IMG/VR virus record: IMGVR_UViG_3300042197_004429
Coordinates: 32,001-96,000 of that record
From: a virus
Reading direction: 5' to 3' (one strand)
DNA: 64,000 nt
A program made the translations under genes and the position numbers. Shown piece by piece: positions 21,698 through 33,667 of this stretch (position 1 is its first letter; every line of letters begins with the position of its first letter). A model generated the notes under the pieces. That model saw only the letters and a list, made by a program, of their open reading frames with translations. It was not told the DNA's origin and searched no databases.

Positions 21698-21884
21698 CAT
21701 CTACAAAACCTGCTTTGGCGGACCTTTCCATGGCAAAACTTTTGCTCCTCATCCCGGCGAAACAACTCTCAGAATTGCAGTCTGGTCTGAAGGAAAATAT
21801 GCGGGGGACAGTTTGTATCGGGTTGAGGAAGATCATTTAAATTACATAGGTTTTGACAAAACAAACAATTGGCCGAAAAAATAA
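21690..21884 (+). CDS. Hypothetical protein
   Basis: CFGGPFHG pattern. Confidence 0.55.
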   Translation: MNNIYKTCFGGPFHGKTFAPHPGETTLRIAVWSEGKYAGDSLYRVEEDHLNYIGFDKTNNWPKK

Positions 21885-22195
21885 TGAAAGAGTCAACTTT
21901 GCGAACATTTTGGTTTTTGTCTTGGATTGTCCAATTTGCCTTGATTTCGCTCGTTATTTTGGAATTGATTGATTCCAAACCGCCGTTCAAGGAAACCACT
22001 CCCGAGCCGCCCGTACTTAAACTTTCGGACTATCCAAAAACTGAAGAGCATTGTAAAATATGCCCCCAATGCCGGGCTAGATGGGATTTGATTGAAAAGA
22101 ATCAGATCACATGGGACAGCCCAGTTTGTTGCAACGAAGGGTTTGAAATTGGAATGCAAGAATTTAGGGAAAGACTTGGAAAAGAAAGAAATTAA
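21884..22195 (+). CDS. Membrane-anchored Cys-containing protein
   Basis: TM then CKICPQC...CC. Confidence 0.6.
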   Translation: MKESTLRTFWFLSWIVQFALISLVILELIDSKPPFKETTPEPPVLKLSDYPKTEEHCKICPQCRARWDLIEKNQITWDSPVCCNEGFEIGMQEFRERLGKERN

Positions 22196-22209
22196 ATAGG
22201 AGAAATAAA

Positions 22210-22585
22210 ATGTTTAAAAGAGGATTTGTTTTAGAATTATTCGGATTTATTCTTTTGTTTTTTTTTGTCGGTGATTATACTATTATTATTCGGGATAAAA
22301 TTTCATACCATTTTATCCAAAAACCACACGGGCAAAATAGAATATAAATTTCAGGATACCCTAGAATTTTGTGACAAAGACACAGACGAAATTGTTAAAA
22401 AATTAGATAATGTAGAATTTAGAGTGTTGGGGAAAGATACTTACATGTATGTGGTTAAAATGACAGTAGGACCATCACCAGAAGTTTTAATTATGAATCA
22501 ATTTCCTCCAAATACTTATTTAACATTTAGACAAACCACAGTTGAGGAAACGGAAAAGAAGGAAAAGAAAAAACATGTGGAATAA
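22210..22585 (+). pseudogene. Membrane protein split by a frameshift in a T9 run (or sequencing error)
   Basis: AGGAGA SD + ATG 22210; deleting one T from 22258-22266 joins it to the 22265-22585 frame and gives one continuous TM helix. Confidence 0.5.
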
Positions 22586-22916
22586 AAACATGAAAGAAAT
22601 GCCGATGGATACAAGGCTTTTACTTCTTTCCAAGCCGAAAACGAAAGAAAAGCGCAGATTTGTCGCCATTGCTGCTTTGGAAGAGTGGGGCGGCAAGAAA
22701 ATACTGATGTACCCCACTGGATACCCGGAGTTAATGCGACTCTGGGGGTGCAAGAAGGGAGACATTTCCGAATTCGAGGCTTGGATGTATTTTGATGAGA
22801 ACCCACTGGAATCCCGCACAGTCTCCAAGCCCGGTGCTGTTCTTGAGGTAAAGGCGGTTCCTATTCCGCCAAAAATTCAATCCAAGATGGCAGAAGCTAT
22901 AAGAGGAGAAAAATGA
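22575..22916 (+). CDS. Hypothetical protein
   Basis: GC-richer ORF in run. Confidence 0.55.
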   Translation: MWNKNMKEMPMDTRLLLLSKPKTKEKRRFVAIAALEEWGGKKILMYPTGYPELMRLWGCKKGDISEFEAWMYFDENPLESRTVSKPGAVLEVKAVPIPPKIQSKMAEAIRGEK

Positions 22917-23182
22917 AATACAAACTAAAGAACATCCTAAACGGTGCAGTTTGGGCCGAAGATCATGTTGAGATTGAAATTTCGCCTGAAGAAGCCAATG
23001 ATCTTCGACAAGCTTTAAAAACTATTCAAAAACACAAAGAAGTTGCGATTAAAGCGTACAAATCACATAATGGATATAGTCCTGAACGTGATCATAAAGA
23101 TCCTACTCACTGGTGTGAGTTTGACTATTGTGTAAAAAATGATAAGATCATTGTTATCATAAGAAATGGCATGGCTGGCTAA
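22913..23182 (+). CDS. Hypothetical protein
   Basis: AGGAG SD. Confidence 0.65.
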   Translation: MKYKLKNILNGAVWAEDHVEIEISPEEANDLRQALKTIQKHKEVAIKAYKSHNGYSPERDHKDPTHWCEFDYCVKNDKIIVIIRNGMAG

Positions 23183-23207
23183 TGATTGAAAAAGGAACTA
23201 AATTAAT
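23017..23207 (+). repeat. Direct repeat copy 1 (~190 bp)
   Basis: Near-identical to 23459-23648. Confidence 0.9.
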
Positions 23208-23532
23208 GGGAGAAAGAATGATGGAAAGAAGAAAATTCGTAAAGTCACTGTTGCCTCTGGCGGCGCTGAAAATCAACATCGGCGACTTTGCCACATGCCA
23301 GAAGGGCGAGCTCGGTCTCATACTCTGGGAACACTCCGCCAAAGACAAGAGAACCAACAGGCCGTACATCCTATATCACGGAATCAACTTGAGTCACGAC
23401 AAGTTCGGCCTCAACTGGCAGAGCCGATATCCCACGAAGGTCAACAAGAACTATGTCAAAAAACTGTTCAAAAACACAAAGAAGTTGCGATTAAAGCATA
23501 CAAATCACATAATGGATATAGTCCTGAAGTGA
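23182..23532 (+). CDS. Chimeric hypothetical protein (GC-rich insert between repeats)
   Basis: N-terminus MIEKGTKL mirrors MVEKGSKL of 23623; C-terminus reads into repeat copy 2. Confidence 0.5.
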   Translation: MIEKGTKLMGERMMERRKFVKSLLPLAALKINIGDFATCQKGELGLILWEHSAKDKRTNRPYILYHGINLSHDKFGLNWQSRYPTKVNKNYVKKLFKNTKKLRLKHTNHIMDIVLK

Positions 23533-23648
23533 TCATAAAGATCCTAGTCACTGGTGTGAGTTTGACTATTGTGTAAAAAATGATAAGATCATTGTTATCA
23601 TCAGAAATGGCATGGCTGGCTAATGGTTGAAAAAGGATCAAAACTAAA
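23459..23648 (+). repeat. Direct repeat copy 2 (~190 bp)
   Basis: Copy of 23017-23207 with a few substitutions and a 1-nt deletion (GAACGTGAT to GAAGTGAT). Confidence 0.9.
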
Positions 23649-23883
23649 AGCCAAATGTCCTGATTGTGACACTGGGTGCGAAAAATGTTCTGAGGGTTAC
23701 ACCGAGGTAACTTTTGGAACAGAGGATAGTGTTTTGTATTCTTTGATCTGCAAAGATTGTGGAACTAGTGTTGGTGGCGGTTTTTTGGATTCAAAAACAA
23801 TAAAAATTATAGATATTATCAATAAGGGTGCCATGTGTCCTTTTTGTGAAGGAAAAAACATTGAAAGAATTATTGAGGAGTAA
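23623..23883 (+). CDS. Zn-ribbon protein
   Basis: CPDC, CEKC, CKDC, CPFC. Confidence 0.7.
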   Translation: MVEKGSKLKAKCPDCDTGCEKCSEGYTEVTFGTEDSVLYSLICKDCGTSVGGGFLDSKTIKIIDIINKGAMCPFCEGKNIERIIEE

Positions 23884-31786: not shown

Positions 31787-32515
31787 TTGATGAAGATACT
31801 CGCTGAAATCATAGCCGGAAGTCACCTGTATGGATTATCCACACCAGAATCGGATGTGGATAAGCGTGGTGTTTTTCTAAACACAGAGCCTGGAAAAATT
31901 TTAGGCTTAAATAGATTTGAAGTCTTAAAAAAATCAAACGAAGACACTGTTTATTTTGAGTTAGTTCATTATCTTCATGGTTTAAAAAAAACTAATACTC
32001 AAATGGTGGAGATGATATTTGCCGAAGAGTCAGATTTTGTTTTTTTATCAGATGAATTTAAACAAATACGAGAACAAAAATATAATTTAATTGATAGTGA
32101 ATATCTTTACAAAAGTTTGTTAGGATATATTCAAAATGAAAAAAAACTAGCAAACGGAGAAAGAACTGGAAATTTGGGCAGTAAAAGAAAAAACACATTA
32201 GATGCTTTTGGTTATAGTCCTAAGAATTTTTCTCACCTTTTTAGGTTGTCTTTTTGTGGTCAAACTTTTTTTGAAACTGGCGTCTACCCAGTTAACCTGA
32301 ATCGATTTGATAAACAGTTCAGAGATCTTGTTTTCTCCATAAAAACAGAGCCTGAAAAATACAATAAAGAATATTTGAATATGTTATGCGAAAAATCATT
32401 GCAAAAATTAACAATATCGTTCAACAACAGAAAAGATAACTTTAAATTTGACGTTTCTTTGGCTAATGAGTTTTGCAGAAAATTTTACCTTCCTTTTTTG
32501 GAAACAAGCTATTGA
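31787..32515 (+). CDS. Pol-beta superfamily nucleotidyltransferase (RlaP/Nuc-transf-like)
   Basis: IAGSHLYGLSTPESDVDKRGVF, HLFRL. Confidence 0.85.
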   Translation: MMKILAEIIAGSHLYGLSTPESDVDKRGVFLNTEPGKILGLNRFEVLKKSNEDTVYFELVHYLHGLKKTNTQMVEMIFAEESDFVFLSDEFKQIREQKYNLIDSEYLYKSLLGYIQNEKKLANGERTGNLGSKRKNTLDAFGYSPKNFSHLFRLSFCGQTFFETGVYPVNLNRFDKQFRDLVFSIKTEPEKYNKEYLNMLCEKSLQKLTISFNNRKDNFKFDVSLANEFCRKFYLPFLETSY

Positions 32516-32542
32516 CAAAAAAAATAAAATAATTAATATATA
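32512..32542 (+). promoter_or_regulatory. Putative sigma70-type promoter for ncRNA
   Basis: TTGACA followed by AT-rich TAATAT/TATATA at 16-19 nt spacing. Confidence 0.5.
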
Positions 32543-32550
32543 GTCTTATT

Positions 32551-32699
32551 GCCAGTAGGGGTTGGTTGTTGTGTCACCCCTTGCTGGTTGTTAGATGTTG
32601 TCAACTTACCGGCAAAGTTGACCGCTGTTCAGCCGGTTAACAGCGTTACGTCCCCCACCGGGTAGAGAACCTCGTCCCTTCTCCCCGGTGGGGTTTTTT
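32551..32699 (+). ncRNA. Unclassified structured ncRNA candidate
   Basis: GC-rich intergenic island: 5' hairpin, three-way junction with complementary loops, terminal hairpin + T6. Confidence 0.7.
32653..32699 (+). terminator. Intrinsic terminator
   Basis: CCCCACCGGG/CCCGGTGGGG stem followed by TTTTTT. Confidence 0.8.
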
Positions 32700-32713
32700 G
32701 TTATAATATTTTT

Positions 32714-33667
32714 ATGAGTTGGCAAGAAAAAATACAATTATTGCGATTAGGTGATTATGAAAAAGGTTGGCCTGATCACGAAGACGTTGTGGTCGGAACT
32801 GGTAGTAACGTCTTTTGTTCCTCCCCAGATTACGGCAAGCCGGTTTGGTGTGGTCAAAAAGAGGATATTGTTCTATTGATAGATGCTCTTTTTGGTGATG
32901 GTGACACCATTCAATTTTTTAGATTTGTTGAAGAGGCTAGAAAAAGAGTTAAAAAAATAATTTTACATTGTAATCAAGAGTTTGATAATTTATTTAGCGA
33001 ATTTGAGGTCTCAGATAAACAAAAACATCCATTAAATTTTGATAAAGTTATTCATATGATGGCTTTGCCAAAAGTTTTAAAAATTAAAAAAAATGAAATA
33101 AAAGGTTTTCCATATTTAACGCCAAACGACGCCGCTTCTCCAAACCCAGCAATTCAAGTTTTGCCCTTGTTAAAATTTCCAAAAGTTGGAGTTTGTTGGT
33201 GTGGCAATCCATTTAATGCTCTTGATTACAAAAGATCAGTACCTGTTAATTTGCTTGAAATTTTGAATGTTTGTGACAATTTCAAATTTTTTAGTTTGTG
33301 TAGAATTTTTGGTCCCCCAAAAAATTATTTTGATTATCGAAATGCAATGACAGATTGGAACCAAACAGCACACTTGGTTAAAAATATGGATTTGGTGATT
33401 ACTGTAGATACATCGGTGGCCCACCTAGCAGGATCTATGGGCGTGAAGACTTGGCTTTTGTTGGACCCTGAGGTTGGTGAATGGAGATGGGGAGATGATC
33501 AAAAAACAATTTGGTACGATAGCGTACAAGTATTTAGAAAGAAAAACGACTGGCGAACATTGCTTTCTGAGTTGAGCGAGATCTTAAAAGTATTTTTAGA
33601 GGATCATCAAAAAAATAAAAAAGAATGCATTTGTAAACCGTCAGCTATTCTTGAGTCTTTTATTTAG
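32714..33667 (+). CDS. GT9/heptosyltransferase-like glycosyltransferase (TPR-GT catalytic domain without TPRs)
   Basis: FGDGDTIQFFRF, VGVCWCGNP, DLVITVDTSVAHLAGSMG, WRWG, WYDSVQVFR. Confidence 0.8.
   Translation: MSWQEKIQLLRLGDYEKGWPDHEDVVVGTGSNVFCSSPDYGKPVWCGQKEDIVLLIDALFGDGDTIQFFRFVEEARKRVKKIILHCNQEFDNLFSEFEVSDKQKHPLNFDKVIHMMALPKVLKIKKNEIKGFPYLTPNDAASPNPAIQVLPLLKFPKVGVCWCGNPFNALDYKRSVPVNLLEILNVCDNFKFFSLCRIFGPPKNYFDYRNAMTDWNQTAHLVKNMDLVITVDTSVAHLAGSMGVKTWLLLDPEVGEWRWGDDQKTIWYDSVQVFRKKNDWRTLLSELSEILKVFLEDHQKNKKECICKPSAILESFI

Follow-up and report, generated by a model that had tools for sequence, protein, structure and literature searches.

The window analysed here, a stretch of 64,000 nt, covers bases 32001-96000 of the IMG/VR virus record IMGVR_UViG_3300042197_004429, which is 177 kb long and ~74% complete (CheckV). 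Its G+C content is ~25-38%, and the public runs containing DNA of the region were mostly freshwater metagenomes, with no RNA runs listed among them. On the plus strand of the window, a promoter-to-terminator unit of ~150 nt lies at 32546-32699, with a G+C content of 54% compared to ~33% in its surroundings. An earlier note had described this unit as a GC-rich island between a TTGACA promoter and a terminator, comprising a 5' hairpin and a helix (P1) enclosing two abutting hairpins with exactly complementary loops, directly after a Pol-beta nucleotidyltransferase gene. All of these elements were found, the hairpins and P1 also in the minimum free energy (MFE) fold, and the locus is laid out as follows:

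31787-32515: gene for an RlaP-family nucleotidyltransferase of the Pol-beta superfamily (PF10127, E = 1e-8; phrog_388, E = 8e-27), directly upstream of the RNA
32512-32539, plus strand: sigma-70-type promoter, with TTGACA at 32512-17, a 16-nt spacer and TAATAT at 32534-39 (10/12 consensus positions)
32551-32588, plus strand: 5' hairpin of ~11 bp (G32551-U32588) with the U/G-rich loop GUUGUUGUGUC, from the MFE fold
32594-98 (GAUGU) and 32648-52 (ACGUC), plus strand: P1, closing the three-way junction 32594-32652
32600-07/32615-22, plus strand: P2, 8 bp, with the loop ACCGGCA at 32608-14
32608-32613, plus strand: kissing segment of loop L2, ACCGGC, the exact reverse complement of 32632-37
32623-29/32639-45, plus strand: P3, 7 bp, with the loop CAGCCGGUU at 32630-38
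32632-32637, plus strand: kissing segment of loop L3, GCCGGU, the exact reverse complement of 32608-13
32653-32699, plus strand: P4 hairpin (32653-93) and a tract of six U (32694-99), abutting the 3' strand of P1
32699-32716 region, plus strand: extended -10 promoter TGnTATAAT (TG 32699-700, TATAAT 32702-07), overlapping the end of the U tract
32714-33667, same strand as the RNA: GT9-like gene, 317 aa, downstream of the RNA

Genes for an HNH-helicase, an FtsJ-like methyltransferase and an HD-plus-CCA-adding enzyme also lie near the RNA in the window. The GT9-like protein is predicted to have a glycosyltransferase fold (pLDDT 92.9), with the protein heptosyltransferase TibC and the LPS heptosyltransferases WaaC/WaaF as the best structural matches and no obvious link to the RNA; searching PDB sequences with the GT9-like profile returned no match.

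Transcription of the unit is predicted to start at ~32546-48. The MFE fold of the RNA contained every helix listed (-63.7 kcal/mol, z = -4.3), and 0/200 shuffled sequences folded as well. The junction is nearly free of unpaired nucleotides, with 1 nt between P1 and P2 (J1/2), 0 nt between P2 and P3 (J2/3), which therefore abut, and 2 nt between P3 and P1 (J3/1). P4 has an outer stem of 10 bp (CCCCACCGGG/CCCGGUGGGG) followed by a UA bulge, an inner stem (GAGAA/UUCUC) and the loop CCUCGUCCC, and as a 15-bp bulged GC-rich hairpin with six U it has the features of an intrinsic (Rho-independent) terminator. A simple terminator scanner missed P4, whose loop and bulge are beyond the limits of that scanner. 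A 38-aa open reading frame overlapping the RNA was not considered credible, as each of the six frames of the 113-nt core is interrupted by stop codons. The GT9-like gene starts with an ATG at 32714, 7 nt after TGnTATAAT and without a Shine-Dalgarno sequence, an arrangement which is kept in two relatives (L002 and L029, below), suggesting from sequence that the GT9-like mRNA is probably leaderless and separately initiated at this site.

Searching the whole window against Rfam 15 at the gathering score returned two tRNAs and nothing else, and a search of 32400-32800 with E up to 10 gave noise alone (mir-2010, PrrF and similar). DNA patterns based on the loops and hairpins recovered a single IMG/VR relative, L002, and further relatives were therefore reached through homologues of the downstream GT9-like protein, whose contigs were fetched and searched with covariance models, R1 built from three near-identical copies and R2 rebuilt from six. 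Together the two models identified nine copies (E-values of 1e-25 to 9e-5), representing eight distinct sequences and ~7 lineages, all on large-phage contigs:

Window, 32590-32702, 177-kb IMG/VR record
L002, 2877-2989, IMG/VR, 458 kb
L029, 2217-2329, JGI, 501 kb
L116, 2551-2673, Logan assembly
L322, 2400-2521, ENA, 95 kb
L031 (and partial L032), 2340-2450, Logan assembly
L034, 800-912, IMG/VR, 239 kb, GC-rich
L249/L250, 953-1064, JGI
L247, 1333-1442, Logan assembly

Genomes that could be searched whole held one copy each, and the RNA gene, ~150 nt in the window, measured ~115-230 nt in the relatives. The promoter in L002 is identical to that of the window, and TTGACA was found 56-168 nt 5' of the core in 7/9 copies. 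Four weak matches (L070, L201, L213 and L280, E 0.05-0.5) were not taken as members.

Searches by other routes added little. The loop pattern matched 26 stretches in IMG/VR, of which one was real, the relative L002, and the P1-P4 pattern matched 72 stretches there, none of them below E = 0.05 with model R2. The P4 pattern retrieved the known members alone from IMG/VR and, from GTDB genomes, one unrelated GGGTAGAG repeat array; this array, in a Thermoanaerobaculia MAG (L246:5280-5450), consists of tandem ~30-nt units with GGGTAGAG and CTCCCCGG, and is a chance match to the pattern. A three-element pattern run on metagenome contigs gave GC-rich chance matches, with 0 new members among the matches listed. 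No RNA copy was detected at 78 distant GT9-like loci in IMG/VR, nor within 1.5-3 kb of the GT9-like gene in five other lineages. An RlaP protein search of IMG/VR found no relatives, and neither the 2.5-kb region nor the RNA by itself matched any INPHARED phage record.

The nine-row alignment (eight distinct sequences) was then assessed for compensatory change. Across the four helices, standard pairs occupied 96.3% of cells in this alignment, which was fitted by the same model whose structure it tests and covers ~7 lineages. Both sides had changed in 24/35 pairs, and 0/500 column shuffles reached any of five measures; when the partners were slid by 1-3 columns, pairing fell to 40-48%. The changes on both sides were spread over P1 (4/5 pairs), P2 (7/8) and P3 (5/7). 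In P4 the stem sequence is kept (CCCCAYCGG/CCGRUGGGG), with the pair at columns 101/140 varying between C-G, U-G, U-A and G-C. Each of the four helices contains G-U pairs, showing that the structure belongs to the plus-strand transcript and not to the DNA. The earlier note had named a lack of covariation among homologues as refuting, and the homologues show strong compensatory variation; with this variation, the absence of any Rfam match and the viral origin of the record, its description of an unclassified phage RNA held, for which it had suggested an Alu-like ribosome mimic, a pRNA-like RNA or a protein decoy as possible kinds. We regard it as almost certain that this is a real, conserved structured RNA.

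Conservation was concentrated in the 3' ~110 nt, with a variable 5' part. The RNA cores of the window and L002 were 98.2% identical, compared with 76% and 82.5% for the flanking coding sequences, and the core of L029 was identical to that of the window. The junction strands stay short in every copy (J1/2 1-2 nt, J2/3 0-1 nt, J3/1 0-5 nt) while their sequences vary, and a U tract follows P4 in all copies except L034. The 5' hairpin that had been described for the window proved to be restricted to its clade, which includes L002 and L029, and to lie outside the conserved core. Within this clade its stem covaries, with L029 having A-U at three pairs where the window has C-G, and its U/G-rich loop GUUGUUGUGUC is kept. 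The differences from L002 and L029 preserve pairing, as do the variants 32556 T>C, 32576 A>G and 32579 C>U in freshwater contigs; among the differences listed for these contigs, those inside the RNA fall in the 5' hairpin alone. In L247 and L322 the hairpin is absent and P1 is preceded by a leader of just ~15-30 nt; the lineages share no 5' motif.

In all eight distinct sequences L2 and L3 are Watson-Crick complementary over 5-6 nt, in loops of 5-15 nt. The 6-nt loop complementarity would arise by chance with p ~0.002-0.007 (shuffled or random loops), and the chance probability of the loop match per sequence is ~0.0003-0.07. Seven of the eight sequences have CCGGC in L2 and GCCGG in L3. The eighth, L247, has CGGCG/CGCCG, a shift by which one pair is lost and a new G-C pair gained at the opposite end, with both partners changed each time; this shifted, compensated pairing indicates that it is the complementarity which is conserved, and not a CCGG motif. 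A functional role for the loop-loop pairing is probable. The lengths of P2 and P3 track each other (8/7, 8/7, 7/7, 10/7, 10/10 and 9/7 bp).

Given the position of the RNA between two protein genes in the window, we compared its neighbors across the copies. The nucleotidyltransferase gene, to which a link had been implied, is indeed adjacent in the window, but the link is not supported: RlaP lies upstream in 5/9 copies, its place being taken elsewhere by a histidine phosphatase (His_Phos_1), an SPFH protein, small ORFs or an unknown protein. The GT9-like gene is downstream on the same strand in 9/9 copies, 14-600 nt from the RNA, and no other protein gene is a constant neighbor. It is adjacent to the RNA in six copies, in which 14-60 nt separate the terminator from the start codon. 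In L322 and L249/L250 the GT9-like gene is separated from the RNA by a convergent gene for a small membrane protein. In L034, where the GT9-like gene follows a NADAR gene, the RNA has no U tract and fills an intergenic gap of the operon, ending 11 nt before a Shine-Dalgarno sequence.

Several features of these neighborhoods were noted in passing. A small gene matching PF04120 (Iron_permease) recurs on the opposite strand immediately upstream of the GT9-like gene (L322:2516-2944(-), L249:1059-1244(-), and in L030, L248 and L324). Its stop codon abuts the RNA terminator wherever the RNA is present, and the terminator may act in both directions there. A NADAR-domain gene overlaps the GT9-like start by ~10 nt (L034:924-2340, L248:1013-2430, L324:2471-3900), so that translation of the two genes is apparently coupled. 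Upstream of this pair there is often a gene for a histidine phosphatase, and together the three may represent a module of huge phages related to ADP-sugars. Gene calling divides the GT9-like gene of the 501-kb JGI contig into three overlapping pieces of 68, 198 and 76 aa (L029:2341-3293), a split which is due to frameshifts or assembly errors. In L116 the public call (L116:2501-3646, 381 aa, P0007) begins ~190 nt too early and crosses the RNA; the gene really starts at L116:2691, where codons for M-N-W follow a GAGGGA ribosome-binding site.

We propose that the locus encodes a structural RNA which is locked by its loops, acts in trans and binds a protein, and give this statement as a whole a probability of about 0.45. 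Host sigma-70 RNA polymerase would transcribe the gene from its near-consensus promoter, and the intrinsic terminator would end the transcript. The working part would be the 3' 110 nt, a near-perfect three-way junction whose loops would pair over 5-6 G+C-rich bp, followed by the GC-rich hairpin P4. As P1 abuts P4 and P2 abuts P3, two coaxial stacks are likely, P4 on P1 and P2 on P3. The kiss would either lock P2 against P3 in one molecule or join molecules head to tail, and the rigid, loop-locked scaffold would bind or titrate a phage or host protein. The comparison shows the helices and their conservation, the complementary loops, the strand and, in some lineages, independence of the neighboring genes; that the RNA is transcribed, acts in trans and has a protein partner is inferred.

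That the RNA is a stand-alone product rather than a cis-regulatory one is, as a separate part of this proposal, likely. In L322 and L249/L250 a convergent gene follows the terminator, so there the RNA is not a leader, and in the window the GT9-like gene has a TGnTATAAT promoter of its own. In L029 the RNA core is unchanged even though gene calling splits the GT9-like gene in three. No conserved anti-terminator pairing was found, and the junction is too tight to accommodate a ligand pocket, each of which also argues for a stand-alone RNA. Counted against it are the fixed position 5' of the GT9-like gene on the same strand, which could reflect a role in cis, and L034, where the RNA lies without a U tract inside an operon. 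On balance we read the RNA as neither a riboswitch nor an ordinary base-pairing sRNA.

Whether the kiss forms within one molecule or between molecules can be argued both ways, from geometries known in other RNAs and kissing complexes. A full 6-bp intramolecular kiss may be sterically strained with 0-1 nt between P2 and P3, and the same short J2/3 in all copies, together with loops that keep 5-6 nt of complementarity, would suit a self-assembling RNA. P2 and P3 would then form a coaxial rod of ~15 bp with L2 and L3 at its ends, and head-to-tail intermolecular kisses would give dimers, rings or fibres, on the principle of the phi29 pRNA or of designed kissing-loop nanorings. The topology, P1 plus two arms with mutually complementary loops, is pRNA-like, and in L249 both loops are 6 nt long and fully complementary. 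Fully complementary 6-nt loops go with head-to-head coaxial stems in the kissing complexes TAR/TAR* and RNAI/RNAII. Against this, the P2 and P3 lengths covary, as expected of side-by-side arms, and a summed arm length of 14-20 bp would alter the helical phase of any ring; the Rfam pRNA model gives no match, and we know of no pRNA need in huge phages, which package via terminases. Self-assembly, the main rival to our proposal, is considered unlikely, as is an RNA-only assembly of closed rings or fibres in these terminase-packaging huge phages, possibly serving as a scaffold or a multivalent protein trap. A leader acting in cis, as a riboswitch, a protein-dependent attenuator or an RNA thermometer, and controlling the GT9-like gene or NADAR plus GT9-like through P4, appears distinctly unlikely. 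It would fit the same-strand position upstream of the GT9-like gene in 9/9 copies though the upstream neighbors vary, the terminator lying 14-60 nt before the start codon in six of them and the filled intergenic space of L034, but not the convergent gene that intervenes in L322 and L249/L250, nor the five lineages whose GT9-like gene has no RNA copy within 1.5-3 kb. Downstream genes also have promoter-like sites of their own, and the junction is almost without unpaired nucleotides for a ligand pocket. No conserved anti-terminator was seen: an alternative pairing of P4 (ACCGG/CCGGU) with the loops was dropped, since in L322 and L034 its ACCGG no longer resembles L2. The repeated CGUCCC at the P1 3' end and in the P4 loop was likewise dropped as a switch, because it is absent from L031, L249 and L247.

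A base-pairing sRNA would have its seed in the variable 5' part, for example the GUUGUUGUGUC loop, with the 3' module as a stability or chaperone scaffold plus terminator. The division into a variable 5' part and a conserved 3' part agrees with such a design, as does the U/G-rich loop kept in the window clade while its stem covaries. We nevertheless consider it improbable, as no 5' motif is common across the lineages, the leaders of L247 and L322 are just ~15-30 nt, and matches to the seed complement within the window were near chance (9 versus 3.9 expected, one of them the RNA itself); a covarying junction with a conserved kiss also exceeds what a scaffold needs. Least probable by far is a Y RNA or a tRNA-like cofactor of the RNA-repair genes of the phage (Ro60, RlaP and the CCA-adding enzyme). 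The genome does encode a TROVE/Ro60-like protein, and the RlaP and CCA-adding enzyme genes lie near the RNA. A terminal stem built from both ends of the molecule is characteristic of Y RNAs and is missing from this fold, and the Ro60 gene is 41 kb away, with its own adjacent tRNA-like RNA gene; a bacterial (YrlA-like) Y RNA was rejected on these grounds. Adjacency to RlaP is not conserved, and neither ARAGORN nor Rfam makes a tRNA-like call for the RNA. A TnpB omega-RNA remnant was rejected by reasoning, as the RNA has its own promoter and terminator, carries no 3' guide and is syntenic across diverged phages.

The Ro60 locus is of interest in its own right. A TROVE/Ro60-like ORF of 531 aa (PF05731) lies at G000:C1 ~21866-23650, ~10 kb before the window start (L326:1327-3130), and is directly followed by a promoter (TTGACA, 17-nt spacer, TACAAT) and an 88-nt tRNA-like gene, which scored 44 bits with the Rfam tRNA model and was called tRNA-Ala(tgc) by ARAGORN. 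Its sequence suggests an over-long anticodon arm, and more structured sequence and a T run come after it. We regard this tRNA-like gene beside a phage Ro60 as a candidate Y RNA of the YrlA-like type. The IMG/VR record yielded no RtcB.

Huge phages carry many tRNA and RNA-repair genes, with few described non-coding RNAs. The RNA of the window can now be registered as a new RNA family, and its small size makes it accessible to direct biophysical study. Known RNAs with related shapes give some measure of how it differs. The purine riboswitch (RF00167) has the same general layout, with a P1 enclosing two hairpins of ~7-8 bp whose ~7-9 nt loops pair with each other, and a terminator hairpin directly 3' of P1. 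Its junction strands, however, are ~7, 8 and 3 nt long and hold the ligand-contacting bases, whereas those of the phage RNA measure 1-2, 0-1 and 0-5 nt, so that the conserved purine-riboswitch and hammerhead junction sequences are absent, as the earlier note had it. Its loops form two Watson-Crick pairs where those of the phage RNA offer 5-6. With no RF00167 match, no anti-terminator found and two lineages in which the RNA is not upstream of a gene, we rejected membership of this family despite the shared P1/P2/P3 loop-loop layout. Hammerhead and other Rfam self-cleaving ribozymes were rejected also, as there was no match and the junction is nearly fully paired.

In the 5' part of the SRP Alu domain (helices 2, 3 and 4), too, a closing helix encloses two hairpins joined by tertiary G-C pairs of their loops (L2/L1.2), followed by a further helix. 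There, helices 3 and 4 are separated by a U-turn in place of the 0-1 nt found here, and 2-3 loop pairs form where 5-6 are possible in the phage RNA, which has no helix 5 or S domain; without an Rfam SRP match or a U-turn linker, it was not assigned to this group. The X and Y domains of the enterovirus 3'UTR resemble it in having adjacent hairpins in one RNA with a conserved ~6-bp 'K' kiss, but they belong to the genome of a eukaryotic RNA virus, have no closing P1 and have unequal stems of 8 and 12 bp.

The phi29 pRNA (RF00044) is also a phage RNA of ~120-170 nt with a strong early-type promoter and a three-way junction in which two arms carry mutually complementary loops. Its loops pair over 4 nt and between molecules only, a long helix joins its 5' and 3' ends where the phage RNA studied here has a short P1 and the extra P4, and it comes from protein-primed phages of ~20 kb as opposed to records of 177-501 kb. 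With no RF00044 match and no small-genome context, membership was rejected, the complementary-loop three-way junction being shared. The combination of a near-perfect three-way junction with a conserved G+C-rich loop-loop pairing is an unusual signature, and we conclude that this is a genuinely new structured small-RNA family of huge phages, matching no known family. If the kiss is intramolecular, its fold would be a new minimal 'tuning-fork'; if it is intermolecular, the RNA would be a second natural assembly on the pRNA principle, in an unrelated phage group.
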